Source: Asterionella formosa (taxonomy: Eukaryota). From it: a stretch of 37,957 nt of DNA. The notes beneath the pieces are model-generated. The model was not told the origin of the DNA. It did no database searches and saw only the letters and a list, made by a program, of their open reading frames with translations. Location of the stretch: the NCBI GenBank assembly GCA_002256025.1, contig NKIB01015153.1, positions 1 through 37,957 of the forward strand, written 5' to 3'. A program made the translations under genes and the position numbers. Positions 1,886-37,143 of the stretch are shown here, in pieces. How positions within the stretch are numbered: the stretch's first letter is position 1; every line of letters begins with the position of its first letter.

Positions 1886-4800
1886 ATGAAACGTCATCCA
1901 ATGGTTCGTATTGCCATGGTTGGGGCACTGATGCTCATTGGTAGTTCAGTATCGTCGTTTGCTCCATTGACTAGGCTGGATCGAATCTGGGGGTACGTGT
2001 GTATGTGTGTGTGTGTGTATTCAGTTGTCACACAATCAGTTGTTATTCAGGTGTCTCTCACACAAAATACTACATTTTTTTATAAAGGACTTCGTTGTTG
2101 TTATCGACGACCTTGGAATCCAGTAATAGTGGCAGCGGTACTAGTGATACGCCTCTCAGCAATGAAGATGATACACAACAACGACGACCCACGAGACAAT
2201 ACAACACTCCTGGACGCGCGACACCATCGGCTTCCAGGCCATTTGATGCTGGTCGTGGAAGAGGAAATAGAGGAGATTCAAGGAGTATTGGTGGAAGAGG
2301 AGAGGGACGTGGACCACAAGGTCGTGGAGGTGGTAGAGGTGGATTCGAAGGAGGACGTGGAGGAGGGGGAAGGGGTGCATTTGAAGGACGCGGCGAAGGA
2401 GGACGGGGAGGAGGGGGACGGGGACGAGCTGAGTTTGGACGAGGACCAGCTGGTCGAGGAGGTACGCTGTTTTATCTAATCGATTCTCTGCTTGCTCATT
2501 GCGTTTTTGTCGTTCTCTGGAATGTCATGCGTGACTAGTTGCACTTTCACTCACACACACCCAAAAACTCAGGAGGTGGCCCTAGTGAGGATGGCCCAGT
2601 CTTGAAGTTGGTGAACCCACTCAAGTTGCAACGCACAGTATTCATCCCTCCTCCAAGACCTGCCTTTGATCGTGCTCAAGAAAATAATAACTCCAGAGGT
2701 CCTCCTTCAAGAAATAGTCCTGCTGCTAATCGTTCAGTTAGACCAGTAACTAGTATTGGAGACAATGCCGGAGGCGACTCGGATGCAGACGGTAAGGGGT
2801 ATTGTTGCTGTTGCTGTTGCGAACAAAACTAAACGGAATTTATATATACGCCCTTCATACCGGCCAAAATTTTGACCTGACGTTTATTTGTTAATTTTTC
2901 TTGTTATACTGACACTCCAGGCGGGTTTACCGGAAATGTTATAGGTGTCAACAAACCAGCGAAACGTGGGGCGCCTGCCAAGGTCGTGACCAAGGTATAT
3001 ACGAAGAAGGATGGGGGAGAAGATGCTAGAAACGTTAGAAAGAATTCCTTAAAATTGGGAACAACCAAAAAAGGACGTGGTGCTGGTGAAACGATGCGTC
3101 GTGGTTCCTTGAGAAAGAAAGATCGTTCGGCAGAAAGAGAACGTCGAATGGAAAATGCGTTGGAAGCTAGAACTGTACAATTACCGGAGTAAGTCTTGGT
3201 GGCGTGGAGCGAACGTGACGCACATACCCACACACAATTTTGTTTTCTCACCCGTGAATTTGGTATCCTATAGCCACCCTGTGCCAGTATCCGAGTTGGC
3301 AGAATTGATTGATGAAAAACCAATTGCCATTATCAAATTTCTCATGACAGATCTTGGTGTCATGGCATCGATTACTCAGAATTTAGACCCAGCAACATGC
3401 ATTGCGGTTGCAGAAGGATTCGGACGCATTGTTGGGGAATTAGGCGATGACGAATATGATGATGAAATGAGAGATATGATTGAGGAAGGTTATGAAGATA
3501 CTGCTGTCGCCACTGGATTTGCTGACTATGAAGATTTCGAAGAGGATCTTCAACCTCGTTCCCCCGTCATCACTATTATGGGACATGTTGATCACGGCAA
3601 GACATCGCTTTTGGATGCTATTCGGAATACTAAGGTCACTGCTGGAGAGGCAGGTGGGATCACTCAACACATTAACGCCTATCAAGTTATTCACAAGGGG
3701 CAACAGATTACCTTTATTGATACTCCTGGTCACGCTGCCTTCACAGATATGCGTGAGCGTGGTGCCAATATTACCGATATTGTTATCCTTGTCGTTGCTG
3801 CGGATGATGGGGTCAAGCAACAGACTGCTGACTCGATTGTTTGTGCTCGCCAAGCTGGGGTGCCTCTCATAATTGCAATTAACAAATGCGATCTTGAAAC
3901 TGCTGATCCATCGAGAGTTATGTCTGACTTGACCGCCTACGATATTTTGTCGGAGTCACTTGGAGGTGATGTCCTCACAGCTGAAATAAGCGCCAAGACA
4001 GGGTCTGGATTAGAGGATTTACTAGACAAGATTATGCTTCAAGCGGAAATTGAAGACTTGACTGCCAACCCCAACAGAGCTGCACAAGGAGCCATCGTCG
4101 AGGCTCGCATTGAACGTGGTCTTGGAACCGTTGCTACTACCCTGATTCAGAAGGGAACCATTCGAGTTGGCGACAACTTTGTTGCTGGTTCCAGCTATGG
4201 TCGCGTTCGCGCTCTCATTGCTACAGATGGAAAGACACGTCTGACGGAAGCTGGTCCGAGTACACCAGTGAATGTGGTTGGTTTCGAGGGAGTTCCTGCT
4301 GCTGGTGATATTTTGGTTGTGGCAGATGACGAGCAAAGTGCACGACTAATTGCTGAGAACCGTAAACGACTATCTCGTGAGAAAGAGTCCTCTCAATACC
4401 AGTCTGGGTTAATGGGCTCCGTTAGCGCTTTGTTTGGAGGTGAAAGCAAGGAAAAGCGTGAAATGTGTGTTGTTGTCAAGGCTGACGTGTCCGGTTCGGC
4501 GGAGGCCCTTACGCGGGCACTTCGCGAACTCAAGCTTGAGAACGACGAAGCCACTGTCACGATTAAGGTGTTAGTCAGTGAAACTGGAGAAGTCACCAAG
4601 AGTGACATTGCTGTTGCTGGAGTGTCGCCTGACACCACCGTCATTGCATTTGGTGTTTCTGCTAGTTTTGACGCCATGGAGGACGCTAGGGCACAAAAAA
4701 TCCCTATTGAGTACTTCAACATTATCTATGACGCCATTGAATCTGTCGAATCTCGTATGCAAGAGGTTCTTTCACCTACCCCTGAGGGAGAGTATGTTGG

Positions 4801-5065
4801 CGCTGCCACTGTACAAGAAGTCTTTAACATTGGAGGTACCGGAAACATTGCTGGTTCTCGGTGTACAAATGGGTACATTCGAAAGGGAGCCAATGTCCGT
4901 GTCATGCGTGGTGACAAAATCCTCAAGTACACCACTGTCAAAACTCTGCGGAATTTCAAGGCTGAAACAGACCGTATCGAAGGCGGAAATGAGTGCGGTA
5001 TTGGATTGGCTGACTTTGAGGACTACCAGTCAGGTGACGTTATCGAATGCTTCGTCATTGTGTAA
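1886..5065 (+). CDS. infB: Plastid-targeted translation initiation factor IF-2. Exons 1886-1992, 2088-2461, 2573-2791, 2921-3188, 3274-5065 (about 919 aa).
   Basis: G-domain motifs GHVDHGKTSLLD, GGITQHI, DTPGHAAF and NKCD are present, followed by the IF2 C-terminal domains (KADVSGS, IIYD, ECGIGL). The N-terminal signal peptide ends VSS-FAP (ASAFAP type). Four GT-AG introns join the ORF pieces with consistent phases. Confidence 0.95.
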
Positions 5066-5803: not shown

Positions 5804-7744
5804 TCAAGCACGATAAGCATGACTAAGCGACGGAGGCGGAGGCGAATTTTTCTTGGATTCCACCATTTTCGCAAGATAGAGAAAGCCAAGAACTTTCGAC
5901 ACACTAATCATGACGCTTCCGTTCGATCCTGGGTCTGTCGACGACAGCATTCTTTTCTTGTTCCCCACTGCCATGGTTGAACCGTCTTCATAGTAGAGAG
6001 CTAGATCAGTCCAATTCTGGAATGCCGAAGCACATTGGAGACACTGGTCAACTAACTTCGAAAATAGGTCACGTCGGTACCCATCAGTATTGGCGCGGTG
6101 GTTACCACGTTCGAATTTTTGACAATCCCATTCGCCATATACCAAATGGAGGGCGCACTTCATCCAATCCCGGAGTGCCACACGAGGTGGTGTCTTGCGT
6201 CGATTACGTCTGTGATGATTCATTTGGGCAATACGAAATTGAAATTGCAGTGGCAAGCGGGCCAAGTCAGCAGCTTCGGTCGATGCTCCATAGATTGATG
6301 TCACCGGAACTACTTGAGATTCTGCTTCGGTCCATAACGTCTCTGATTCCGTTTCCAACGGGTCATCGTCAGTATAGTCGTTCAACTCCCACGTGGGCAC
6401 ATTTCGATCCCAGGCGGTTGCAGATTTTTGAGAATTTATTTGCGGTACAATAGTTACTTTGGACTTCCAAATGACTGGTTTAACAATAGTCTTTTCTTGT
6501 GGTGGATTATCCAAAAAGCCAATGAGATTCCTTTGAAGAAAATCGTAATCTGGCATATCGTTGAAGCCTAGGCTAGCCACATGCTTGAAGCACTTCCGGA
6601 GAAGTTCGACCTTTTCCACATCCTTGGCTAGCTCCAATGGTTCCGGGAGATCTGCATTAAATTCTTTGCCCTCCTTCTTGGCCATGTCATGTTTATATTT
6701 GGCTAAGAAATAATCTTCCCCCATGAGCATTATTTCTGTCTTGTCATTTGCTCCATTGTCATCTCCGTGAACTTCTTCCTTGGCTCGCTGGCATGCCTCT
6801 CGATCTCGATTCGCCGCATATGACATCCATGGCAAACCGCCGGTTATCAAATCACAAAAAACATATAACAAAGACCACATGTCGTCACGAAACGAGTAAT
6901 CCTTGCCTTGATGGACCCGCAAGGATGCATACATGCTCGTTCCCCTAAATTCAGCACTTGGTCGTTCGTTCCGTAATTTCAACGAGCCACTAAAGTCTCC
7001 TCCCGCATCATGATGACCCTCATCGACCACAATACTTTTTGATAGCCCAAAATCCACCATGGCAAACTCCTTGTAATCTCGCCTGACACAATTACTAGGT
7101 TTCACATCACGATGTACCACCCCTGCCATGTGCATTTCTCTGAGTAGTGGTAACAAGACATGCGCTGACAAGTACACAGCATCTTCCCCTGTCATGCGCC
7201 TCCCGCCAGTCGCGTCTCTAAGTTGATGCATGTCTTCTCCTCCCAAAAATTCCATGACTAGGGCTGACGCTGTGTGTGAGGGCGTATTGGATACATACAA
7301 TCCCATGTAGATTGGAACCGTCTTGGGCTTGACTCGGTGATCCAAATGAGACAATATTTGCCCTTCGCCTTCCAAGACTCCCGAATCTGTGTAATTGTCC
7401 AATTCAACCTTGGCCGCGACCAATCGCGGTTTTTTGGTGGCATTGCTGCCGCTGCTGCCATTACACTGATAATGATAATTCATATCAATACATTTGTGAA
7501 TGGAGCAAAATGTGCCCTTGCCCAATCGTCCCAGACAAAAGTAGGGACCCAACATGGACCCTGGTTCAGGAAATGCACCTTGACATTCGACTTGCTGAAT
7601 GGGCTTCATCATGTGCTTGTGATAGCTGGACGCCGAGGACAGGGCAGGGGCTATGCCAGTCATCAGTAGTGCGGGCGCTTCGGATCCTGGAGCGGAAAAG
7701 GAAGGTACGGGGCTTTGAGGGGTTCCAACGGCGGACTGAGACAT
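5804..7744 (-). CDS. Ser/Thr protein kinase, casein kinase 1 / tau-tubulin kinase-like (646 aa, single exon)
   Basis: Kinase motifs LGKGTF, VAAK, HRDVKPSN and DFGLSK. FRGTSMYAS replaces APE and RDDMWS follows, both typical of the CK1 group. Confidence 0.9.
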   Translation of the reverse strand: MSQSAVGTPQSPVPSFSAPGSEAPALLMTGIAPALSSASSYHKHMMKPIQQVECQGAFPEPGSMLGPYFCLGRLGKGTFCSIHKCIDMNYHYQCNGSSGSNATKKPRLVAAKVELDNYTDSGVLEGEGQILSHLDHRVKPKTVPIYMGLYVSNTPSHTASALVMEFLGGEDMHQLRDATGGRRMTGEDAVYLSAHVLLPLLREMHMAGVVHRDVKPSNCVRRDYKEFAMVDFGLSKSIVVDEGHHDAGGDFSGSLKLRNERPSAEFRGTSMYASLRVHQGKDYSFRDDMWSLLYVFCDLITGGLPWMSYAANRDREACQRAKEEVHGDDNGANDKTEIMLMGEDYFLAKYKHDMAKKEGKEFNADLPEPLELAKDVEKVELLRKCFKHVASLGFNDMPDYDFLQRNLIGFLDNPPQEKTIVKPVIWKSKVTIVPQINSQKSATAWDRNVPTWELNDYTDDDPLETESETLWTEAESQVVPVTSIYGASTEAADLARLPLQFQFRIAQMNHHRRNRRKTPPRVALRDWMKCALHLVYGEWDCQKFERGNHRANTDGYRRDLFSKLVDQCLQCASAFQNWTDLALYYEDGSTMAVGNKKRMLSSTDPGSNGSVMISVSKVLGFLYLAKMVESKKNSPPPPSLSHAYRA

Positions 7745-12544: not shown

Positions 12545-13852
12545 CTACTGTGACTTGACTTTGTGCCCACCCCACTTTTTAGGCGACTTGGTCCATCCGT
12601 TGGCGGATGTGGGCCTTCTTATAGGGTTTGTGGGTATGTTCGTTCCCTTCGTTGGCCAGATGAAGTGCAAAATAACGAGTATCAACAGAAACCATAAGAA
12701 AGAATTAACAACGGTAGAACCATTGGATGCGCAAAAGGCAAGTGGTGACAGAACGCGTCCTGAAGCTTCGGTTTGCTCCAAATAGAAATGAGCCGAATCA
12801 CACACTTGCTGTAAGCCCCTACTGACAGCAGCGTATCCCTTAGTGGAATACTCCTTGATTGGCTCCCAAACTGGTTTCAAGGCAGGTTTTATGTCATTTT
12901 CCACTGTTGCCTTGGCGTGTTCATTGTAAAGCTCCTCGATTTTGGTCAAGAGTGCAGAAACCTGTGGTGCAACATTTGCTTGATAGAACTCCATGACTTT
13001 GACCGCCACTGGAGTAGCGGCCTTAATCGTTGCTTCGTACACTGGCATTGCGGCTTCCTTGGCAGCAAACCATACTTCCGTTACCCTGTCTCGCACCTTC
13101 ATAGTTGTGAAAAGTGCATCCTCGTAGATCAACGTTGTATTAATGTATGTGCTTGTTGCTTTGTCATGAAGGTGACGCATGCGTTCCTGTGCCAAAACTA
13201 GTTCCTTACGTGAATCATAATACTTGGCTTCCGCTTGTTTCAAGATTGCCTTGTGGTTTTCAACGTCTTTTGATAGTGTTTTCTTGGTATGGCTTAATTC
13301 CGTTTTATGCGATTGCAATTCATTTGTCAACTTCCTGACGTGCTCTTCTAGCTCCGATGCCTTGACTTTGTGTGCCACCAAGACCTGATTTTCAGCCTTG
13401 AGCGAGGCGAGAAGTTCCTCTGCCTCTGTCCTATACGAAGCTTCGCGTTCCATCACTTGCTCAAGGGTATCTTGGGTCGACTGGATTGTCGCCTCAAGAT
13501 TGGCAATTTCTTGTGCCTTTTCCGCTTCCAGCTGCAGGATTGTCGCTTCTAGATTAGCAGTTTCATGTGCTTTTCCCGCTTCCAGCTGCAGGATTTGTTT
13601 CTGGGCGTGATCCACATCCAGTTGTTTCGTCGCGAGTGTTTTTTCTAGAATGAGAATCGCGTTCGTCAGGTCCGTATGTTTGGATTCCATCATGGAAGTT
13701 ACTCGCTCTTCTGTTTGCTTGGCGCGTTCTGAAGCCACGTGCTCGCATTGTTGTTCCTCGCACACACAGGGAACATCTTGCGCAAAAGAAGCTGCTGCCA
13801 CGAGAAAAAGCAGCAATAAGGTGAGACTCGCCTTTGTTGTCATTTTGGTCAT
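12545..13852 (-). CDS. Type I membrane coiled-coil protein (435 aa) with signal peptide, long heptad region, C-terminal TM helix and KxKxx tail (ER-retrieval type)
   Basis: Signal peptide LTLLLLFLVAAASFA-QD; E/K/L/A/Q-rich heptads with an internal duplication (ILQLEA.KA.E.ANLEATI x2); TM FLWFLLILVILHFIW; C-terminus KVKSQ. Confidence 0.85.
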   Translation of the reverse strand: MTKMTTKASLTLLLLFLVAAASFAQDVPCVCEEQQCEHVASERAKQTEERVTSMMESKHTDLTNAILILEKTLATKQLDVDHAQKQILQLEAGKAHETANLEATILQLEAEKAQEIANLEATIQSTQDTLEQVMEREASYRTEAEELLASLKAENQVLVAHKVKASELEEHVRKLTNELQSHKTELSHTKKTLSKDVENHKAILKQAEAKYYDSRKELVLAQERMRHLHDKATSTYINTTLIYEDALFTTMKVRDRVTEVWFAAKEAAMPVYEATIKAATPVAVKVMEFYQANVAPQVSALLTKIEELYNEHAKATVENDIKPALKPVWEPIKEYSTKGYAAVSRGLQQVCDSAHFYLEQTEASGRVLSPLAFCASNGSTVVNSFLWFLLILVILHFIWPTKGTNIPTNPIRRPTSANGWTKSPKKWGGHKVKSQ

Positions 13853-14651
13853 TGGTGATTTGTGAAAGGGATTTAACCGGTATGCTTATTTTCAGCAACA
13901 AGGCGGTAAAGCAAGAGTATCGGTATATATGGGGAAGGTTGACGACGACGAATGAATTCGAAAAAGCTTTGTTCGGGTTCGTCCTCTAGATTTTTGTACG
14001 TGGCTGTTGCGGGATTAAGTGGTAGTGGTAAACACGACACAGTCGTGACATTCCTGATTCCTAAAATTGAAGTTGGTTACCAGAACCGGCATGTAACACA
14101 TACCGGGTATGTGTATACATAACATGCTGTCCCTGGAAGGTCCAGCAATTCAGATTTTGCTAAATGTCTCGATTACATGACCTTCATCTGTGGTACTGGT
14201 ACATGGTATGGGACCTGGTCCCTGGTAGTGCCAGGTACCAGATACCTTTTACCTGGTACACAGGATACCCGTGCCGGTAGTCCCTATAGACAATGACAAT
14301 AATACGGTGCCTGGTACCGTACTGTACATGCAAAGAATGACTGTTATTGTCACTTTGCTCCAAACGTGAGAGTATAATAAATACATGCATGTAAGATATA
14401 TACGGTGCAACCTGCATGGCCTATATCCAAAGGGGACAAATCTTGCATGCCTTGCTGTCATATACGAGGAGAATTAATGAAAGTGCGTCGCAATAGATTT
14501 ATGTTGATGAGACAATAAATTAGATGAGTTGAAAGAAAGGAGCTATTGTTTATAGAATGAAATAAGCATCAGAAGACATTAAATGACTGATATGACACTC
14601 CAAGATTATGACAGAATTGCATGGCATATATCAATCATAAAAAAATCAATG

Positions 14652-17600
14652 CTAGTTTGAATTCAACAATTCGACTGGAGGCATGGGAACATATTCAAAC
14701 ACTGTGAGTATGCCCAAGGCTAAAGCAGCCACAGCAAATGTGAATTTGATAAAACCTTCAAGGGGTCCACTGACCTCAGAGTTGTCAGACTGAAGAGCAA
14801 CAGATGATTTTTCATTCTCAGCAACTGCTGCAGTGCTGAAAACTTCAGATGATGAAAACGTTTTGCCTTCCAACCTATCAAGATAGCCAGCAAGCCCACT
14901 TCCACTTGATTGCGAGGAAGGCTTTGTAAGACCATCCAAATAGGTCACAGGGCCAGATCCTCCTTTGGCAAGTGAAGAAATTCCATTTATCCCGCTGAGA
15001 TAGTTATCACCAAAGCGAGATGAGGATACTGCAGGCTTTGATGCAAATGCAGGAGAGGATGATGATATTCCAGTTAATCCACTAAGATACGTAGCACCAA
15101 AGGAGGACCCACTTCTTGATGGGGTGGAAACTGTTGAGGTGGGTGTTACCGCAACAACAGGAGTGGAAAAAGTTGTGCCATTCAATGCACTTAGGTAACT
15201 AGCTCCCATGCCAATCCCCTTTACTGTCTTTGGTTTAGAATTCGAAGTAAACGGTTTTGATGTAGCAAATGGAGATGCAGAGGATGTCCCTGGTAAGCCA
15301 CTAAGATAGCTGGTACCAAAGCCTGATCCCCCTCCTGATGGGGTGGAAACTGTTGAAGCAGGTGTTACCGCAACAACTGGAGTGGAAAAAGTTGTGCCAT
15401 TCAATGCACTTAGGTAACTAGCTCCAAGGCCAGACCCCTTGACTGTTTTAGGTATAGGATTCGAAGTGAATGGCTTCGATGCAACAACAGGAGAACCAGA
15501 TGAAGATGAGGCGCCTGGCAGGCCACTGAGATAACTGGTACCAAAGCCAGATCCACTTCCTGATGGGGTGGAAACTGATGAAACTGTTTAAGCTGGTGTT
15601 TCCTCAACAACTGGAGTGGAAAATGTTTTTCCATTCAATGCACTTAGGTAACTAGCTCCAAGGCCAGACCCCTTGACTGTTTTAGGTTTAGGATACGAAG
15701 TGAAAGGCTTCGATGCAACAACAGAAGAACCTGATGAGGATGAAGCTCCTGGCAGGCCACTGAGATAACTGGTACCAAAGCCAGATCCACTTCCTGATCC
15801 CTTGGAAGCTGTTGTAGTAGGCTTTGTGGCAATAACTGGAGTGGAAAAGGTTGTGCCATTCAATGCGCTTAGGTAACTTGCTCCAATCCCAGACCCCTTG
15901 ACTGTTTTGGGTTTAGGATTTGAAGTGAATGGCTTCGATGCNNNNNNNNNNNNNNNNNNNNNNNNNNNNNNNNNNNNNNNNNNNNNNNNNNNNNNNNNNN
16001 NNNNNNNNNNNNNNNNNNNNNNNNNNNNNNNNNNNNNNNNNNNNNNNNNNNNNNNNNNNNNNNNNNNNNNNNNNNNNNNNNNNNNNNNNNNNNNNNNNNN
16101 NNNNNNNNNNNNNNNNNNNNNNNNNNNNNNNNNNNNNNNNNNNNNNNNNNNNNNNNNNNNNNNNNNNNNNNNNNNNNTGTCAATAACTGGAGTGGAAAAG
16201 GTTGTGCCATTCAATGCACTTAGGTAACTTGCTCCAATGCCAGAACCCTTCACGGTTTTGGGTTTAGGATTTGAAGTAACTGGCTTGGAGGAAGCCGCAG
16301 ATGATGACGAAAACATTCCTTGCAAACCGCTGAAGAAACCTGCACCAAAGCCACTACTTGATGTGGTGGATGAAGTTGTTTCTGGTTTTACCGCAACAGC
16401 TGGGGTGGAAAAGGTTGTGCCATTCAATGCACTTAGGTAACTTGCTCCAAGCCCAGATCCCTTGACTGTTTTTGGTTTAGGATTCGAAGTGAATGGCTTT
16501 GATGCAACAACAGGAGAACCAGATGAAGATGAGGCGCCTGGCAGGCCACTGAGATAACTGGTACCAAAGCCAGATCCACTTCCTGATGGGGTGGAAGCCA
16601 TTGTAGTGGGCTTTGCGGCTATTACTGGAGTGGAAAAGGTTGTGCCATTCAATGCACTTAGGTAACTAGCTCCAAGCCCAGACCCCTTGACTGTTTTGGG
16701 TTTAGGATTCGAAGTGAATGGCTTTGATGCAACAACAGGAGATCCAGATGACGATGAAGCTCCTGGCAGGCCACTGAGATAACTGGTTCCAAAGCCAGAT
16801 ACACTTCCTGATCCCTTGGAAGCCTTTGTAGTAGGCTTTGTGGCAATAACTGGAGTGGAAAAGGTTGTGCCGTTCAATGCACTTAGGTAACTTGCTCCAA
16901 TCCCAGACCCCTTTACTGTTTTGGGTTTAGGATTCGAAGTGAATGGCTTTGATGCAACAACAGGAGAACCAGATGACGATGATGCTCCTGGCAGACCACT
17001 AAGATAACTGGTACCAAAGCCAGCTCCACTTCCTGATCCCTTGGAAGCCGTTGTAGTAGGCTTTGTGACAATAACTGGAGTGGAAAAGGTTGTGCCATTC
17101 AATGCACTTAGGTAACTAGCTCCAAGCCCAGACCCCTTGACTGTTTTGGGTTTAGGATTTGAAGTAACTGGCTTGGAGGAAGCCGCAGATGATGACGAAA
17201 ACATTCCTTGCAAACCGCTGAAGAAACCTGCACCAAAGCCACTACTTGATGTGGTGGATGAAGTTGTTTCTGGTTTTACCGCAACAGCTGGGGTGGTAAA
17301 TGTAGTCCCATTTAGTGCACTTAGGTAACTAGCTCCAAGCCCAGATCCCTTGACTGTTTTTGGTTTAGGATTCGAAGTGAATGGCTTTGATGCAACAACA
17401 GGAGAACCAGATGACGATGAGGCTCCTGGCAGACCACTGAGATAACTGGTGCCAAAGCCAGCTCCACTTCCAGACGTAGTTGAAGGTGTTGCAGGCTTTT
17501 TGGTGTCTACAGGAGTGGAAAAGGTCGTTCCATTCAATGCGCTCAGGTAACTAGCTCCAATGCCAGACCCCTTGACTGTTTTGGGTTTAGGATTCGAAGT

Positions 17601-18125
17601 GAAAGGTTTCGATGCAATGACAGGGGTTGACAATGACGCCCCGGGCCATCCATTGAGGTAGCTCGCTCCAAAGCCAGATCTACTTTCAGACGAGGTAGAT
17701 GCAGGCAAGGGGGGTGCTGGCTGCGATGAAATGACAGGATAGGAAAACGCCGTGTCGTTCAGCGCACTCAAGTAGCTAGCTCCAATGCCAAATCCCTTCG
17801 TTGTTTTTGGTTTAGAAGTGACATGCTTCGACGGAAGGGAAGGCGACGACGTCGAGGCCCCAGGCAATCCACTGAGATAACTAGCTCCAAAGCCAGACCC
17901 TTGCAATGACGCGGCGGGTTTCGCATCTGCAGAGGTAGCGGGCTTGGATGCGACTGCAACTGACTCTGCGGATTTTGAGATACTTTCGAGGTAGGAAAAG
18001 ATGGCTGTGGGATTGTTCAGTCCGCCATTTCTGGTGAGGCTTGGATAGATCGAAATACCCTGAAAGGCTGATGCATCGGCCAGGAGAACAGCAAGAGCAG
18101 CAGAAACTCTTACTAACTTCATCAT
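14652..18125 (-). CDS. Cluster gene A: plastid-targeted tandem-repeat protein with about 28 visible SYLSxL-type motifs and a C-terminal TM helix. Interrupted by an N-gap (15942-16177) and an in-frame TAA (15588-15590).
   Basis: Presequence MMKLVRVSAALAVLLADASA-FQG. Repeat units of about 75 aa (mostly 225 nt). ORFs 15588-18185 and 14652-15404 are in the same frame and the repeats continue across the stop. C-terminus FTFAVAALALGILTVFEYV. Confidence 0.85.
15184..17900 (-). repeat. Coding tandem repeat array, 213-234-bp units, at least 12 copies
   Basis: A(A/G)TGCACTTAGGTAA-like anchor at 15184, 15403, 15637, 15862, 16213, 16426, 16651, 16876, 17101, 17314, 17536 and 17761. Confidence 0.95.
15942..16177. 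other. Assembly gap (236 N) inside the repeat array
   Basis: Run of n characters. Confidence 1.
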
Positions 18126-19881: not shown

Positions 19882-21159
19882 CTACTCGAAGCTGCCAATG
19901 TCGTCCTTTTTAATTTTCTCTGCCGCTGCCTCCGTCTCCACCACATCTGCAGTAACCGAAACCTCCATCGTTGCTGAAGTAGCTTCCCCCTCCACCACTT
20001 CTGTCGCCGCATCAACAATCAATGCTGCAGAAGCCTGCGCCTCCTCCGCATAGGCTTCACTGTTTGCCTCAACCACAGCCACCCTGGCAGTAGAGATCGC
20101 ATCCGACAAAAGGTTCCACAAGCGTTCAAACGGCTTCAATTCCTTGTTCATGGTACCAACCTTGTCCGCAGTCTTTTCCACAAGATCCCCAACGAAACCA
20201 AGAGCGCTCGTTGTTTCGCCCCACAAATCATATTCATCACTAATCTCGGCCATGCGCAATACAGTGGTGTTAATGGCATTTTCGACTTTATCGATAGCTT
20301 CTGCGTCAATACCATCTTTCTCCTTCAGAGTGTCGATTGCGTCCTCAATGGAAACCTTGGCCTTGTAGACAAGGTCATACTTGGAATCCAACTTTAGGAG
20401 GTAGTTGGAAATTTCAAGGACCGTCTTGGACAAACTTTGCAACACAATACTAAAGTCGTCGTCTTGTTTGGAGAGGTAGTTGGTCATTGCGGAAACGGCA
20501 ACAGCACCAATGGGACCAGCAATGGCAAATCCAGCCACACCTCCAATGACACCAGCAGTAAACTCCACTGTGGCTTCATTGATGGCCACAAGGGCACCTC
20601 CTTGCGATTCGCGGGGACTACGCTCGCGCTGTGAAATAAATGCTTTCGTTTTCAGGAGTGCAGCAGATTTCTTCGCCGGCTCTGACACAACAGCAGGTGC
20701 GGCTTGCACTGTTTCTGGGATGGCTACGACTTCTTCAACTTGCTCAGAGACCGGGGTTTCGTCAATAATTTCAACAAGGGGTTCTGGGGAAGCCAACTCA
20801 ACCACTGGAGCATCATCAGTTGTCAATGCCTCATCGACAACTGGAGAAGGCGTTTCTGCGACAACGGGGTCTGAGTTCGACTCCACTGTTTTCCCAGGCA
20901 ATCCATCGAGGTAGCTACCGAAGGCTGATCCAGAAGCGGCAGGAGTGTCTGGTTCTCCAACAGCGCCAGTCACCTTTGCAGAATCCTCGTTCTCGTTGTC
21001 TGCATTATTCTTTGGACTCGAGATGTCGTCTAGATAGGAAAAGGCGACTGTGCGCTGATTGCGAATGCCAAATCGAGTTCCCTTCTGGTGGATGCTCAAG
21101 CTCTGCAAGGCTGACGCCGTAGCGACGAGGAGAGCAAGGGCAGCCGCTACTCGCTTCAT
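19882..21159 (-). CDS. Cluster gene B: predicted plastid-targeted protein (about 425 aa) with 2 YLDx(I/L) motifs, an acidic linker, and a glycine-zipper hydrophobic segment plus helical domain
   Basis: Presequence MKRVAAALALLVATASA-LQSLS; motifs FSYLDDI and FGSYLDGLPG; hydrophobic segment TAGVIGGVAGFAIAGPIGAVAV; C-terminal domain is paralogous to gene C. Confidence 0.85.
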   Translation of the reverse strand: MKRVAAALALLVATASALQSLSIHQKGTRFGIRNQRTVAFSYLDDISSPKNNADNENEDSAKVTGAVGEPDTPAASGSAFGSYLDGLPGKTVESNSDPVVAETPSPVVDEALTTDDAPVVELASPEPLVEIIDETPVSEQVEEVVAIPETVQAAPAVVSEPAKKSAALLKTKAFISQRERSPRESQGGALVAINEATVEFTAGVIGGVAGFAIAGPIGAVAVSAMTNYLSKQDDDFSIVLQSLSKTVLEISNYLLKLDSKYDLVYKAKVSIEDAIDTLKEKDGIDAEAIDKVENAINTTVLRMAEISDEYDLWGETTSALGFVGDLVEKTADKVGTMNKELKPFERLWNLLSDAISTARVAVVEANSEAYAEEAQASAALIVDAATEVVEGEATSATMEVSVTADVVETEAAAEKIKKDDIGSFE

Positions 21160-21991: not shown

Positions 21992-23602
21992 CTACGAGCT
22001 AGAAGGCTCAACGTTTTTTTTGTCGGCCTTCCTGGCTTCTGCTACAGCAGCCCCCAAAGTCATGTACAATGGCATATCATCGTCACCATATGCTTCCTTG
22101 GTTGCTTCAACCACAGCCAACTGCGCAGCTGTTGCGGCTTCCATCATGCTATTGAAAAGACGCTCGAACAACTGATATTCTTTAGTGAAACTCCCAATCT
22201 TGTTCGCTGTTTTTTCAAACAGGTCGCCCACGAAGCCAAGAGCATTAGTAGTTTCAGCCCACAAGTCAAATTCATCACTAAGCTGCGCCATTCGTGACAC
22301 TGTCGCTGCAAGTGATTTTTCAACCTTATCAATTGCTTCGCCGTTGGCACCTTCTGACTCCTTGAGCTTATCGAGTGCATCCTCGAGCGATATCTTTGTC
22401 TTGTACAAAACGTCGTACTTTGAATCCAACGTTACAAGATAGTTGTACACTTCAATGGCAGATATGGCAACCTTTTGTACAAGTACACTGGCATCACCAT
22501 TTTGTCTCGACAAGTAATTTGCCACTGTCGCCGCGGCAATAGCACCCACGGGACCGGCCACGGCGAACCCGGCCACCCCTCCAAGGACACCGGCAGTAAA
22601 CTCCACTGTCGCGTCGTTCATTACTAGGACCATGGCCCCCTCATTTCTTCGTTGCCGGGGTTGACGGTCTCGCTTGGCAACAAATGGTGGAGGATTCGGG
22701 TCGACTAAAGGTTCCACTGTCACGCCATTGTTCAATCCATCGAGATACCCCCCGGAGAAAGGTCCAGTCGAGCGATACACCGGCTTTGCAACGTTATCAT
22801 CGGAAGAAATACTAACATGAGATGTTTTAGCATAATCCGCATTCTGCGCTGCGACCTCCGAATCAGGAATCGTCGATCCTGATAAACTACTTAAATAGCT
22901 GGCCCCGAAACCAGACACTTTGGCTGAAGATGGAAGAGTTGTCGTCGCAGCGGATGCTACCTGCGGTGAACCAGGAAGAGTTGAGGTTCCTGACAATGCA
23001 CTGAGATAACTAGTCCCAAAGCCAGATGATGCACTTATTGATGCAGAAGGTGTTGTTTCAAAACCATTCGTGTAAGCTGGTGTACTTGGCAATGAACTAA
23101 GATAGCTAGCCCCAACGCCTGTCCCTGTCGTCGCTGAAACTGGCGTTGAAGGAGGGACATGATGTGTTGTCACTGCCGGAGTGGCGAGCTTCGTTCCCGT
23201 CAATCCACTAAGATAGCTAGAACCATATCCAGGTCCACCCATAGTAGCTGACACTGGAGGAGTGCGATTAGCAACACTTTCGAGATAAGAAGAAGTCCCT
23301 TGCACTCCTTGAACGGGTGCTTTCTTGAACGAGTCCTTTGAAAGTGAGTTGAGGTATCCTCCTACATCGGCAGTGGCACGCGTTTCTTCGCCATTCACGG
23401 CCCCGGAGTCATCTAGGTATCCATGAAAACCAGGCCCTTTCGGGGTTTCGCCATTGTAGTTAGATAGGCTATCAAGGTACAAAAAGGCTGACGTTGGCTC
23501 CTTTCGAACGTTTGCTGACTGTTGATGGACTGAGAAACTTTGCACGGCTAAAGGAGAAGGCGTAGCCAGGAATAACGCGAGAGCAACGTAAACCCGAATC
23601 AT
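21992..23602 (-). CDS. Cluster gene C: predicted plastid-targeted protein (about 536 aa) with 9 YLxxL-type motifs and the same glycine-zipper/helical domain as gene B
   Basis: Presequence MIRVYVALALFLATPSPLAVQS-FSV; motifs GYGSSYLSGL, GVGASYLSSL, GFGTSYLSAL, GFGASYLSSL and others; hydrophobic segment TAGVLGGVAGFAVAGPVGAIAA. Confidence 0.87.
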   Translation of the reverse strand: MIRVYVALALFLATPSPLAVQSFSVHQQSANVRKEPTSAFLYLDSLSNYNGETPKGPGFHGYLDDSGAVNGEETRATADVGGYLNSLSKDSFKKAPVQGVQGTSSYLESVANRTPPVSATMGGPGYGSSYLSGLTGTKLATPAVTTHHVPPSTPVSATTGTGVGASYLSSLPSTPAYTNGFETTPSASISASSGFGTSYLSALSGTSTLPGSPQVASAATTTLPSSAKVSGFGASYLSSLSGSTIPDSEVAAQNADYAKTSHVSISSDDNVAKPVYRSTGPFSGGYLDGLNNGVTVEPLVDPNPPPFVAKRDRQPRQRRNEGAMVLVMNDATVEFTAGVLGGVAGFAVAGPVGAIAAATVANYLSRQNGDASVLVQKVAISAIEVYNYLVTLDSKYDVLYKTKISLEDALDKLKESEGANGEAIDKVEKSLAATVSRMAQLSDEFDLWAETTNALGFVGDLFEKTANKIGSFTKEYQLFERLFNSMMEAATAAQLAVVEATKEAYGDDDMPLYMTLGAAVAEARKADKKNVEPSSS

Positions 23603-32447: not shown

Positions 32448-35400
32448 CTAAATATCTTTCTTTCCTCCCTCACCCAGGGGATCGATGGAACTATACCGAT
32501 CCATCAAGGCAAATATATTGCCTGCTGCAGCCTTTGCTTTCTCCCTGTTAGTTGCTCCTTGTGCAGCGATTGCCAAACCGTTGAGGGAGAGGAGGAGTGA
32601 AAACATGGAAATCAGAAAATCACGATACTCAAACTTGGAAGGGTACTTCAGGAGCAACCAGCCTCCCCACCAAATCATCAAGGCAACTCCCCACATTTGA
32701 AAGAATTGACCAAGACCAGATGACAACCCTTTGATAAAGTTACTCTGGAATGGATGAGGGTCCTCCTTCCGAAGGGCACATTCATATTCAGCATTCCGAC
32801 CTGTCTCGGCTGTTAGAGATGCAACAGTTCGCATATTTAACAAAGTTTCCACAACAATACCTCCAGGAGAATTTTCGTCATCCTTCTGTTCCACCTCATC
32901 AGGTTGTCCCATATACATTTTCATTTCCATTTCAGCACCAAATGCCATGAAAGGGAGAATGCACAATGTCAACAATGCAAAGGGCCACATGAAGAAGAAT
33001 GACACTACCAACCCCACAGCAACACTAGATGTGTTCATGACCAATGTACGTATAGGCTCTCCACTTTTTGAATATAGGAGGGTTAAATTCACGTCCATGA
33101 TAAAAATTGACAACTTACTAGACCGTTTTGCGGTGAAAAAAAAACGTACCTAAAGGAGTGAATCAGAGCAGCATCGTCCTGAATCTGGCTTGTTATTACT
33201 CCAACAGGTCGAAGATCGAAGAAACCAACTTCTTGACGAATAAGTGCATTAAAAGCAGCATCACGGACGCGCTTGTTCATTCGCTCCGATGCTGTTCCGA
33301 ACCCTAATAGAATAATGAATTTTCATTTGTTATCGCCCAGCTTTAAAGCACATTTTGTGTATACCAGAAAAGTCGATACACAAGAAAACTCACCATAAAA
33401 AAGCAAAATATTGCCAATAAGAGAAGCTACAATTACCCCAATGCACCCATATGTAATTTTGAATGATAGCTGCTTCATATCTTCAGAGGTGAAATCGTAG
33501 AATTCCTGGCAAGTTTGGAAAGGAGGCGGAGGGGGTTCAAGCGCACTTCCATCTATGCAAGGATATACAGGAGTGTATAGAAGATCAATCTACAGGTAGA
33601 GAGTGTCAGAAACGATTGCGCCGAAATGATTTGAGCTTAGGATCGCCTTTTGAGCACAAACAGTACCATAATTCGCACTCACCATGTAAGCAAAAATGAA
33701 CTGTTGAACGAAAAGTGCATTTTCAGTGAGAAGAAAGTAAAAGTTTTGGATTTATCTCTGCCTTGTACTTACACCGAAGCCTGGGAAAATGAGTCCAGCG
33801 AGTATAGCTCCAATTGTCCCAATCAGAAAATACGACCTATCTGGGGTGGCCAATTCCCATGCCCGCCTAGCGTTCCTTTTGTCAATATCTTTTTTAAGAT
33901 CATAACACTCCTTTTGTTCCAACCTGTGCTTGGTGGACCTCTCGCTCTTACTATCTGGTGAATCGTGAAGCATGGTGTTATTGTGGTTGGACACCAAGCC
34001 TCTTGACTCGCGCTTACGCGTTTTGTCGGTGTCCAGGTCTTGGAGCATTTCTAATCGCTTGTAGTGGCCGCCTGGCAGTGACATCAACTCATCGCGGGAG
34101 CCGATCTCGAGAACTTTTCCGTCTGCGATAACAGCAATGCGATCAGCATTGCGGATTGTTGAGAGTCTGTGGGCGATGACGACAACTGTCTGTGATTTAT
34201 CCTCCATAATTTTATCCAATGCCTCCTGAACTACATTTTCACTCTCACTGTCAAGGGCACTGGTTGCCTCGTCGAGAAGTAGAATTCTCGGTTTTTTTAT
34301 CAACGCCCTTGCGATAGCAATTCGTTGCTTCTGACCACCTGAGACTAATGTTCCTCCAGAGCCTACAATCGTGTTGTACTTATCCGGGAATTGCATGATG
34401 AAATCATGCGCGTTTGCTTGTTTCGCCGCATCTTCGATCTGGGCTTGGGTTACTTGGGGGAATGAAAAGCGGATGTTCTCCGCTATCGTAGCGTCAAACA
34501 AGACAGGCTCCTGACCTACGAGCCCGATCTGATCTCGTAAATACTTCACATTTATTTCCTTCACGTCGATCCCACAGATTTCAATGGTTCCCTTTGACGG
34601 ATCATAGAATCTAGCGAGGTAGACACGGAAGTGTAAACCGAGTGAGAAATAAGACTAATGAAAGCGGACGTGGAGATAGTAGTTTTTCAAACATACCTTT
34701 CCATCAGTTGAACCGTACTTGATTTGCCATGTCCAGAAGGACCGACCAAAGCCAATGTTTCTCCTTCCATCACTGTAAGGTTCAAACCTCGGAACACTTT
34801 ATTATCTGGACGCGAAGGATACGAGAAGTGAACATTGCGAAACCTCACGAGCACTCCAGTGTCGGAGGAATCAAGGCCGATATGTTCTTCTGTGTAATGA
34901 ACATCGTCACCAATATTGCCATGCGACGAATTAGGGTTTGACGAGAGGCTAGCATTGGATTCCTCGCTTTCTGATTTCTTAGCTGTTTGAGCGTCAACAA
35001 GAAGCCAATAATGGCCATGTTTGGCCATCAACTCGTCGTGGGGACCTTGTTCAACAATGATCCCTTTGTCGACCACTGCAATGAGGTCAGCATTGCGAAT
35101 GGTGCTCAAGCGATGTGCTATGACGATTGTTGTCATGGTACCTTCTTGTAAAAGGCGATCAAGGGCCTCTTGGACGACGCTCTCAGAATCGCTATCAAGG
35201 GCTGATGTTGCCTCGTCAAGTAACAAAATCTTGGGCTTTTTTACCAATGCTCTGGCGATTGCTATCCGTTGCTTCTGACCTCCAGACAATTGTGCACCAT
35301 GATCACCGACATTAGTTTCATATCCGTCAGGAAACGAAGAAATAAATTCGTGAGCATTTGCGTTTCTTGCTGCTTGTTCTATTTGTTCTTTCGTTGCGTC

Positions 35401-37143
35401 AGGATTACCATAAGCAATATTCTCTCGAATTGTACAAGCGAAGAGGCACGGTTCCTGGCCCACGAGGCCAATCTGCTGACGGAGCCACTTGACATTTAAA
35501 TCTCTCACGTTATTGCCATCCAGCGTTATATTGCCTCCAGTAGGATCATAAAAGCGCTCCAGTAATTGGACTGCTGTTGACTTCCCAGAACCACTTGGAC
35601 CTACAAGTGCAACAGTCTTGCCGGCTTCAACTATGAGCGAGAACCCATTAAATACCTTGGTCTCTTGGCGGGTTGGATATTGGAAGGTAACATCATTGAA
35701 TTCAATTCTGCCCCTAACTAGTTCTGGTTTAAGACCTTCTTCGGATGAAGAATCAATTTCATACTTTGGCAGGGGAACTTCAGGTTCGTGAATTTCTGCA
35801 GTACCACATTCCTGACCAGCGTCAGTGCCAACTTTGCGACTGATGGCGACAATGGCTGGATAGCACGCCGTTCTCGCTCCTGACACGGATATTTATTGAG
35901 AGATACCATGGGTTCGATTACGCGATACATGATGAACACATGAACGAGCTTACCAGTGAAGGATTCGATGGTACCTGCAACTTGAGGTAGGACAGCAGCT
36001 GCAATAGAAATACCCATGAGAGATCCAAAGACATTGACAGCAGAAGGGTTGCATGTCTCTTTGTTTTCAACCCACCCTGAAGGATCGCACCCACTGGTCC
36101 TGACAGCATCGTATAACAACCAAGATCCAAATAAAGTTACTGACACGTAAGCTAGCATATATGAAGCCATCGTTAATCCATTGGCCAACCCTACCAAATG
36201 AACAACGCCAGCAGCTCCCTCGTACGCCCGTGTCGTGGCCGCATAAAACTTATCAATCATGGTTTCAACGGCATTCAGAGACAAAATAGTACGAATTGAA
36301 GCCACAGCGGTGTACACAATCGAACCAGCTTCAGAATAGGATTCGTTAGAGCGAGCAGTCTGAGATTGTGTGATTTTGACAAGAAATAGGATGGACAAAG
36401 TCATGAAAGGAACTACGGAGAGGATGACCAAGCTGGCTTCCCAAGAAGAATAGAAAGCGTAAGCCAAACCACCTAAGAAAGAGACAGCAAACTGCACTCC
36501 TTCTGCAAGTTTTCGACCAACACCTCTGAAGAATGAGTGCGAAACAATTCAGGTCAGTTAACTGAAGACAATCGGACAACGCAAAGATCTCAAACGAAAT
36601 TTCATCGCACTCACTTTTTGTACTTTGTACTATTTGTTGATATCATTGTAGCAGTACCAGACACATCATTGATGTCATAATACGCCAAATCTTGGCGCAA
36701 CAATGCTCTGAACCAACTAGTCTTGAGGTCAAGGGCCATTTCTCCCGCAACCGTCTCCAAACACGCAGCTTGAATAGACATAGACGTGAATGCAATCACA
36801 CTGCATAAAATGTTGCAAAGCATTTAGTCGACCAAATTATTTTGAGTCCAATTAAACCCGTCCTGTCCTTTGCTTACCCTAGACACATCATGGAATACGC
36901 GATCCGGCGTACATTTTTAAGAAAATCACCTCCGTTGGTTGACGCCCCTAGACTTTTTAAAGAGTTTGAATACACGAATGCCATAGCAGGGAATACACAT
37001 CCTGACACAATGGCACAGGATATTCCGACTATCAATAACCGTTTCTTCTTGGCACCTTTGCCGAACGAGAACACCTCTGCGATAGATGCCAAAGGAGCTT
37101 CAGGTTGCTTCTCTTTCTCAACGTTTGCCTTGGGGTGGTTCAT
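32448..37143 (-). CDS. ABC transporter subfamily B (MDR/P-glycoprotein-like), TMD-NBD-NBD-TMD, about 1342 aa. Exons 37143-36878, 36800-36615, 36525-35954, 35879-34697, 34610-33773, 33700-33683, 33589-33394, 33303-33150, 33063-32448.
   Basis: Two NBDs with Walker A ([18 protein letters not shown]), signature (LSGGQ, VSGGQ), Walker [12 protein letters not shown] and H-loop IAHRLST. Two ABCB-type TMDs ([20 protein letters not shown]). Eight GT-AG introns of 72-93 nt with consistent phases. The start codon is tentative. Confidence 0.93.

Follow-up and report, generated by a model that had tools for sequence, protein, structure and literature searches.

Locus and reading frame of gene A

We analyzed a stretch of 37,957 nucleotides (nt) of Asterionella formosa DNA (contig NKIB01015153.1, assembly GCA_002256025.1), referred to here as the window. 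On its minus strand lies gene A, a reading frame that starts with an ATG at 18125 and ends with a stop codon at 14652-14654. Gene A encodes a plastid-type leader, a long array in which two short sticker motifs alternate, and a predicted membrane helix at the C-terminus. Judged by its motifs, it appears to be a much enlarged, two-sticker, anchored variant of proteins of the type of Diatom pyrenoid component 2 (DPC2). Two paralogues, genes B and C, adjoin gene A on the same strand and have the leader and the motif in common with it. The positions of all features are summarized in Table 1.

The frame of gene A is preserved across a gap of 236 N as printed in the assembly, where the gap length is an estimate, and it contains one in-frame TAA at 15588-15590. 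Past this TAA, the frame and the repeat register run on uninterrupted. Because of the TAA and the gap, the total length of gene A, the number of its units and the link between array and anchor are not established by the assembly, and an anchored protein of more than 1100 amino acids (aa) is not one open frame there. The internal TAA probably reflects a defect of the assembly or of an allele, and the protein probably does not end there.

Transcription and selection

RNA contigs of three studies covered the unique 3' part of gene A at approximately 14555-15200. One of these studies (X4) was a polyA library from the same sample as the DNA run, and the other two (X3 and X9) were metatranscriptome studies. 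Just beyond the gene, at 14400-14503, the depth of X4 and X3 was zero, and the DNA run (X1) had depth in this region.

Eleven complete repeat units were compared codon by codon for the ratio of nonsynonymous to synonymous differences (pN/pS), the unit pairs being non-independent. The ratio was lowest in motif A (0.12), followed by motif B (0.21), the KPK spacer (0.35) and the other spacers (0.60), with an overall value of 0.37. By these ratios, selection acts at the protein level and is strongest on the stickers.

The unique, non-repetitive ends of gene A, namely the leader and the C-terminus, were open and homologous to related proteins. Residues 18-229 of P0031 aligned to 18065-17313, which encodes the first 250 aa of gene A (E 7.6e-19), and residues 10-267 of P0001 aligned to 15476-14751, which covers the late array and the degenerate motifs (E 1.7e-42). 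P0035, a protein of 875 aa from another organism, aligned to gene A at E 4e-44. Its layout alternates likewise, with a KP-rich spacer, a full motif GSYLDALPG[TK]TF and a short motif G..SGIPGKST. From the RNA contigs, the selection pattern, the homologous ends and the layout of P0035, we conclude that gene A is a real, transcribed nuclear gene of this freshwater diatom.

Organization of the repeat array

Gene A contains 12 copies of motif A, G[ILM]GASYLSALN[GD], which can be written as G[ILM]GASYLSALNGTTFSTPV and has the full form GxGASYLSALNGTTFSTPV. It also contains 12 copies of motif B, ten of which read [GS]FGxSYL[SN]G[LW] (short form GFGxSYLSGLPG) and two of which are GFGAGFFSGL variants. 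The order of the stickers was oBABABABABABABABA, gap, ABABABABooo; the alternation is strict, and the lone A-A junction spans the N gap. Neighboring stickers were 34-39 aa apart, and the unit length, equal to the spacing of stickers of the same type, was 71-78 aa. Each unit consists of motif A, a spacer rich in S, T, P and G, motif B, and a second spacer ending in KPFTSNPKPKTVK. A spacer of the latter type was present 11 times. One KTVK occurred in each spacer and one KxxK in each unit.

Among the 890 readable residues of the array, S accounted for 22%, G for 14%, T for 12%, P for 10% and K for 7%, so that S, T and P together made up 44%. There were 65 K and R residues versus nine D and E residues, and the isoelectric point (pI) was 10.2. 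Eleven N-x-T sequons (ten NGT and one NDT) were found in gene A, every one of them within motif A; these sites may possibly be N-glycosylated during passage through the endoplasmic reticulum (ER). The equivalent site reads PG[KT]T in P0035 and in the DPC2-like proteins described below, and NGT in P0001.

The central units were 90-96% identical at the DNA level, and the edge units 61-75%. Units 3 and 7 shared 96% DNA identity and both carried the FFSGL variant of motif B, and units 4, 5, 6 and 9 were 90-94% identical. These unit identities within 16178-17900 point to a probable recent duplication of a four-unit block. A similar centre with diverged edges is typical of arrays expanding in their middle, and arrays of this kind are also those that short reads collapse. 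The summed contig depth of the DNA run at the repeats (15388-15941) was 15-130 times that of the unique 3' part, a ratio that is not readable as a copy number. The array may be longer than assembled, or the repeat may be common to other loci.

The initial annotation of this stretch, made from the sequence alone, had described a protein of more than 1100 aa with two strictly alternating motif types, units of about 75 aa with motifs 35-40 aa apart, a basic and an S/T-rich spacer in each unit, few acidic residues, and a C-terminal anchor. The alternation, both distances, the two spacers, the near absence of D and E, the positive charge and the general sticker-spacer layout, with selection concentrated on the stickers, all agreed with our measurements. 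The claim of length was borne out in part: the 1157-codon frame as drawn, the array and the C-terminal helix were present, but the internal TAA and the 236-N gap had gone unreported.

Similarity of the stickers to DPC2-like proteins

The first 647 residues of gene A were searched with phmmer against 1.84 billion representative proteins, with E values up to 0.001. Eight matches were obtained, four of which were true relatives (P0023, P0024, P0025 and gene B). The remaining matches, P0026, P0027, P0028 and P0029, were rejected as unrelated repeat proteins of helix-hairpin-helix-like, zinc-finger-like and PASTA types. Gene A itself was absent from the proteins returned by both large protein searches.

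In the small proteins P0023, P0030 and P0031 (200-229 aa), the cut of the signal peptide is followed by F or L. A YLDSLS motif comes first, GxGSYLDGLPGKTF[ST]TPV then recurs five times, and the C-terminal end is GFGSYLDGL. All three are assigned to PF25195.2, "Diatom pyrenoid component 2", in precomputed annotation. In our scans with PF25195.1, P0023 scored 46 bits (E 7.5e-12), P0030 40.8 bits (E 3.1e-10) and P0031 44.2 bits (E 2.8e-11). Genes B and C matched the same family weakly (E 0.0045 and 2.7e-5, respectively).

Nine motif segments taken from P0023 and P0031 were used to build a hidden Markov model (HMM) of 23 positions, with which gene A, in its three readable pieces, scored 157, 60 and 67 bits. 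As a control, 600 residue shuffles were scored; 422 of them gave any score, with a maximum of 5.7 bits, so that the array lies well beyond chance. Motif A was matched over all 23 positions with approximately 16-29 bits per copy, except for the degenerate first copy (1.8 bits). Motif B was matched over the first 13 positions only (7-11 bits), and its two FFSGL variants were unmatched. This coverage suggests that motif A is a DPC2-type repeat with a few substitutions and that motif B is a shortened derivative of it.

Cleavage sites of gene A and of the DPC2-like leaders were judged by eye from the sequence. In gene A, genes B and C, P0023, P0031 and P0025, the residue behind the predicted signal cut is F or L. 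A signal peptide followed by F or L is the mark of a bipartite plastid leader, and by this judgement gene A has one. The transit-peptide-like stretch of gene A that follows is short and hydroxylated.

Searches of the ESM Atlas with P0023 and P0031 gave best scores of 0.80-0.82, which is chance level. Metagenome contigs were scanned with two queries, the 127 unique aa at the C-terminus and 439 aa of array sequence, which gave 361 and 88 pattern matches, respectively, none of which was confirmed. For the gene A family, the sub-threshold but significant match to a pyrenoid component appears to be the only functional tie.

C-terminal end and predicted structure

After unit 12, gene A continues with YLSGI, YLDGL and YLDRLEGKTF, a short acidic stretch, a hydrophobic segment and a tail of 14 residues. 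The hydrophobic segment, FIKFTFAVAALALGILTVFEYV, is the sole hydrophobic stretch, and its best 19-aa window had a Kyte-Doolittle mean of 2.18. The last 310 residues of gene A were modeled with AlphaFold2 as a single sequence, which gave a mean predicted local distance difference test (pLDDT) score of 37.5. Residues 1-267 of this query were nearly all below 50, and the only confident helix was the hydrophobic segment (residues 273-298, pLDDT 75-90). The remaining predicted elements were two short strand pairs at NGTTFSTPVV.

A Pfam scan of gene A in large and small pieces found no significant family, and a sequence search of the PDB found no relative, including no wall or silica protein. The only PDB match (E 0.015) was to the S/T-rich leader of PsbW and was rejected as due to chance.

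The initial annotation had also described diverged end motifs followed by a single membrane helix, and had inferred a disordered, positively charged brush tethered to a membrane, with a check on thylakoids proposed. The end motifs and the helix were recovered, and disorder was supported by the low pLDDT together with the lack of a Pfam family and a PDB relative, which likewise gave no sign of repeats folding into a known globular or solenoid domain. A lack of transcription would have counted against that annotation; RNA contigs covered the unique 3' part of the gene. The mention of thylakoids is consistent with the plastid-type leader. The membrane tether stood only in part, as the helix is predicted but a stop codon in the assembly parts it from two thirds of the array.

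Paralogues and neighboring genes

Genes B and C share a C-terminal domain of approximately 190 residues, in which a Gly/Ala-rich hydrophobic segment (Kyte-Doolittle 2.03 and 1.85, respectively) is followed by long helices. AlphaFold2, run on this B-type domain with an alignment of 14 sequences, gave a mean pLDDT of 52. No Pfam family was found for it. The only PDB match of the domain profile, a PPR match at E 0.068, was rejected as due to chance. The domain also stands alone in proteins of approximately 235-270 residues, including those of the pennate diatoms Mayamaea pseudoterrestris and a Bacillariaceae species. AF[AV]P, the canonical signature of plastid import in diatoms, follows the signal peptide in 11 of the 11 short forms aligned.

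Gene-A-like units are fused to the B-type domain in P0001 and P0009. In P0035, a gene-A-like array is fused to the helical part of the domain only, without the hydrophobic segment. No remnant of the B-type domain was found behind gene A in the window. The family thus appears from these sequences to have three formats: a small soluble motif protein, an array with a membrane-associating domain, and the array of gene A with a simple tail anchor.

P0004 (571 aa) is a homologue of gene B and, like P0035, comes from another organism. Both proteins report a longest contig of 20281 bases. The neighborhood of genes A and B may be conserved in the organism of P0035 and P0004.

The next gene downstream of gene A (12545-13852, minus strand) encodes a protein of 435 aa with a signal peptide, a long coiled coil that holds an internal near-duplicate of approximately 18 aa, and a hydrophobic helix at its C-terminus. 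This protein matched no Pfam family and was not found to resemble the motif family. Ordinary neighbors were an IF-2-type translation GTPase (3155-5065), a protein kinase (5804-7744) and an ABC transporter (32448-36497), the last of which is split over four open reading frames, presumably by introns.

Table 1 Features of gene A and its paralogues in the window.
Feature	Position	Strand	Remarks
Gene A reading frame (limits of the initial annotation)	14652..18125	-	1157 codons and final stop; includes 79 N codons and one internal TAA
Signal peptide, residues 1-20	18066..18125	-	Predicted cut after ASA, then F, of the diatom plastid-import type
Transit-peptide-like stretch	17976..18065	-	Ends in the first degenerate motif, FSYLESIS; homologous to N-termini of genes B, C and DPC2-like proteins
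Array part 1, units 1-8a	16178..17900	-	8 motif A and 8 motif B copies
Assembly gap, 236 N	15942..16177	.	Inside unit 8, in place of half a unit or more
Array part 2, units 8b-10a	15591..15941	-	
In-frame TAA, codon 846	15588..15590	-	Paralogous unit reads TCA here
Array part 3, units 10b-12	15036..15587	-	Frame open, motifs intact
Degenerate terminal motifs YLSGI, YLDGL, YLDRLEGKTF	14841..15035	-	Homologous to the corresponding part of P0001
Predicted transmembrane helix, residues 1125-1146	14688..14753	-	Hydropathy 2.18 and AlphaFold2 helix; then 14-residue tail
Gene A 3' untranslated region, to the limit of RNA contigs	14484..14651	-	Contig starts: 14484 (X9), 14555 (X4), 14587 (X3)
Gene B, paralogue	19882..21159	-	Same leader type, two SYLD motifs, acidic linker, conserved C-terminal domain
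Gene C, paralogue	21992..23602	-	About 10 SYLxxL-type motifs, same C-terminal domain as gene B

Comparison with known pyrenoid proteins

In Thalassiosira pseudonana, DPC2 is described as an abundant protein of the pyrenoid matrix that is localized solely to the pyrenoid, forms a hub of the interaction network, and interacts and co-purifies with Rubisco (bioRxiv 10.1101/2023.10.26.564148). According to that preprint, no T. pseudonana repeat protein showed the period expected of a linker, the packing mode of Rubisco is unknown there, and PYCO1 is missing from centric diatoms; DPC2 is named as a prime but unexplained candidate. It also describes that, in Chlamydomonas, one Rubisco-binding motif is common to the linker and to proteins attaching the matrix to membranes and to starch. 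The general logic of a pyrenoid linker, as outlined in a review, is that of weak short stickers with disordered spacers between them (PMC13655443). According to this review, PYCO1 of Phaeodactylum tricornutum has the stickers KWSPRGGS and GTGYNP in five and six copies, of which one binds RbcS and one self-associates, and EPYC1 has five motif copies (PMC13655443).

We compared gene A with these proteins. DPC2 and its small relatives share with gene A the sticker motif, motif A spanning all 23 positions of their repeat. The DPC2-like relatives also share a homologous leader that runs into a first YLDSLS-type motif, and a basic chain that is predicted to be unstructured. They differ in having five or six copies of one motif type, approximately 30-38 aa apart, without an anchor, whereas in gene A two types alternate over at least 24 copies, and K/P-rich spacers and a membrane helix are present.

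PYCO1 resembles gene A in being a disordered, repetitive diatom plastid protein with two alternating sticker types. Neither KWSP nor GTGYNP occurs in gene A, the whole frame of which contains one W; the two proteins were compared by their sticker strings only. No membrane anchor is part of this description of PYCO1 (PMC13655443). By its stickers, gene A does not appear to be a relative of PYCO1, and we do not call it a member of the Pfam DPC2 family.

The closest parallel in organization is found in Chlamydomonas, where EPYC1 and the membrane and starch tethers, such as RBMP1, RBMP2 and SAGA1, are described as sharing one motif, so that it is reused in a soluble matrix protein and in tethering proteins. 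On the diatom side, the DPC2-like proteins would be the soluble form, and the helix of gene A and the hydrophobic domain of genes B and C the membrane ends. The two systems differ in that the lineages and the motifs are unrelated, and Rubisco binding by the diatom motif is only inferred. The motif copies in gene A are several times the five of EPYC1.

FLIPPer defines linkers by at least three repeats, disorder and a pI above 8 (quoted in bioRxiv 10.64898/2026.07.16.738900). On the same scale, gene A has 12 units, a mean pLDDT of 37.5 and a pI of 10.2. Its sticker spacing of 34-39 aa (71-78 aa for the same type) compares with approximately 40-60 aa in the known linkers EPYC1, CsLinker, PYCO1 and SUPA1.

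In a literature search, DPC2 was named together with the pyrenoid only in bioRxiv 10.1101/2023.10.26.564148, and the motif strings were printed in no diatom context. Among the matches listed for literature since 2024 on a Rubisco-binding motif, diatoms and the pyrenoid, no title dealt with a diatom motif. Passages of a commentary on diatom pyrenoid components mention DPC1 only.

Discussion

On the observed anatomy of gene A, its transcription, the selection on its stickers, the motif homology and the plastid-type leader, we base the proposal that gene A encodes a plastid-imported, disordered, multivalent pyrenoid scaffold or membrane tether. We regard this model as a whole as plausible, though somewhat short of probable. 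The protein would be imported into the chloroplast stroma via its bipartite leader. The C-terminal helix would insert into the thylakoid membrane with its short acidic tail in the lumen, and the basic array would extend into the pyrenoid matrix. At least 24 stickers could then make many weak contacts with Rubisco or with a DPC2 partner, and these contacts would cross-link the matrix and staple it to the thylakoid membrane, while the S/T/P-rich and K/P-rich spacers would keep the chain extended and soluble. We infer the pyrenoid location, the binding partner and an anchor inserted such that the array faces the stroma, and binding of Rubisco by gene A is suggested in the same way. Binding of the array to a symmetric oligomer, which the initial annotation had suggested, alongside a membrane surface, from the regular spacing, is plausible, the link to it being an indirect one via the motif homology to DPC2-like proteins. 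Gene A fits the logic of a pyrenoid linker in its plastid address, disorder, high pI, two conserved kinds of sticker, relaxed spacers and membrane end.

Several points weigh against this model. The link of gene A to DPC2 seems real by E value but is transitive and sub-threshold. P0023, P0030 and P0031 all score below the gathering score of PF25195 (41-46 versus 70 bits); the N-terminal 260 aa of gene A reached 12 bits against this family (E 0.29), and the remaining pieces of gene A gave no match. The comparison was made via the Pfam model and the small relatives, not with the sequence of T. pseudonana DPC2 itself, and a pyrenoid localization of the array proteins is only suggested by that of DPC2, for which alone, in T. 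pseudonana, it is known. The sticker spacing of 34-39 aa falls short of the linker spacing of approximately 60 aa expected by Nam et al. (bioRxiv 10.1101/2023.10.26.564148). A homologue with a C-terminal anchor was found neither in the two metagenome contig scans nor among the four true relatives from 1.84 billion proteins. The initial annotation had supposed short amphipathic YLxxL helices; AlphaFold2 predicted no helix at any YLxxL motif and no structure at the motifs, although this alignment-free, single-sequence model is a weak test. Finally, the TAA lies between the membrane helix and two thirds of the array, and a secreted glycoprotein would likewise be compatible with the 11 sequons, the abundance of S, T and P, and the single KxxK in each unit. 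These last two points lead to alternative explanations.

If the TAA at 15588-15590 is read as real, the product of gene A stops at 845 residues without an anchor. The resulting array of approximately 845 aa, plus the content of the gap, would be a soluble Rubisco linker that cross-links the matrix like EPYC1 and PYCO1, and the 311 downstream codons would be left as a remnant that was cut off recently. The assembly contains the stop, and among the contigs listed from four sequencing runs there was no alternative letter at this site, its spanning by any contig being unconfirmed. The listed contigs of X9 and X3 end before the site, and the depth of X3 was zero in the bin 15544-15595, which is evidence neither way. 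The small DPC2-like relatives are soluble as well (best hydropathy window 1.27), and P0035 is likewise without a hydrophobic segment (best window 1.22). However, reading frame and repeat register carry on unbroken through the 311 codons past the stop, where the copies of motif A are intact. This region is homologous to P0001 up to the last motif and is found in RNA contigs, and the TAA differs from the paralogous TCA by a single base inside a collapsed, gapped repeat assembly. We consider an anchorless linker improbable. A membrane brush of the plastid that is unrelated to the pyrenoid is another reading to which we give a low probability. In this case, the tail-anchored basic chain would act as a steric spacer on the thylakoid or envelope, or would use its amphipathic motifs and its lysines to bind to acidic lipid surfaces. 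The leader, anchor, charge and disorder are all compatible with such a brush, and the sub-threshold nature of the DPC2 link speaks for it. A pure spacer, however, needs no conserved motifs, and pN/pS in motif A was 0.12 versus 0.60 in the spacers; moreover, soluble proteins built from this motif match the DPC2 model with E values of approximately 1e-11.

Silaffin- and cingulin-type biosilica proteins have a signal peptide and repetitive K/S-rich stretches that alternate with aromatic motifs, and the lysine-rich spacers of gene A would resemble domains of this type. Gene A could accordingly be read as an ER-directed, mucin-like or biosilica-associated type I membrane glycoprotein with a glycosylated S/T/P-rich array. 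The location of all 11 sequons in motif A, the S, T and P content of 44%, the one KTVK per spacer, and the cleavable signal combined with a C-terminal helix and short tail would suit this reading. Compared with the silaffin and cingulin type, gene A differs in the plastid-type residue after the cut, the DPC2-like homology and the C-terminal helix. The F after the predicted cleavage site is as in plastid-imported diatom proteins, and the whole leader is homologous to DPC2-like leaders. The C-terminal domain of the paralogues, when alone, stands behind AF[AV]P leaders in all of the 11 short forms aligned, and neither Pfam nor the PDB gave a match to a wall or silica protein. We regard a secretory glycoprotein as very unlikely. 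We are equally doubtful of reading gene A as a pseudogene in decay or as a chimera of the assembly, in which a collapsed or mis-joined repeat stays open since its unit lacks an in-frame stop. The internal stop, the 236-N gap, the DNA identity of 90-96% among central units, which invites mis-assembly, and the absence of gene A from the proteins returned by either large search would be explained in this way. Against it stand the RNA contigs from three studies, the difference in selection between motifs and spacers, the unique ends that are open and homologous to relatives, and the layout conserved in P0035.

Returning to the pyrenoid scaffold or tether, gene A is a good, testable candidate for such a role. 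A wider and more speculative proposal, which we regard as somewhat unlikely to hold in full, is that the GxGSYLxGLPGKTF sticker plays in diatoms the part that the Rubisco-binding motif plays in Chlamydomonas, serving as a shared pyrenoid address and glue with three jobs. In small soluble DPC2-type proteins, the sticker would condense Rubisco. In B-type proteins, it would couple the matrix to the membrane-associating domain. In the tail-anchored giant array, at least 24 stickers would staple the matrix to the pyrenoid-penetrating thylakoid.

Diatom pyrenoids account for approximately a fifth of the CO2 fixed worldwide, according to bioRxiv 10.1101/2023.10.26.564148. The DPC2-type sequence itself appears to be a repeated sticker that has been multiplied, in three adjacent genes, into very long arrays with membrane-associating ends. 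The vague candidate DPC2 thereby becomes concretely testable with regard to Rubisco binding, the number of stickers, and anchored forms on the pyrenoid thylakoid, and the motif profile can be used for searching other diatom genomes and pyrenoid proteomes. If true, the sticker as a diatom counterpart of the Chlamydomonas motif would provide the still-missing logic of linker and tether for diatom pyrenoids of the centric type.

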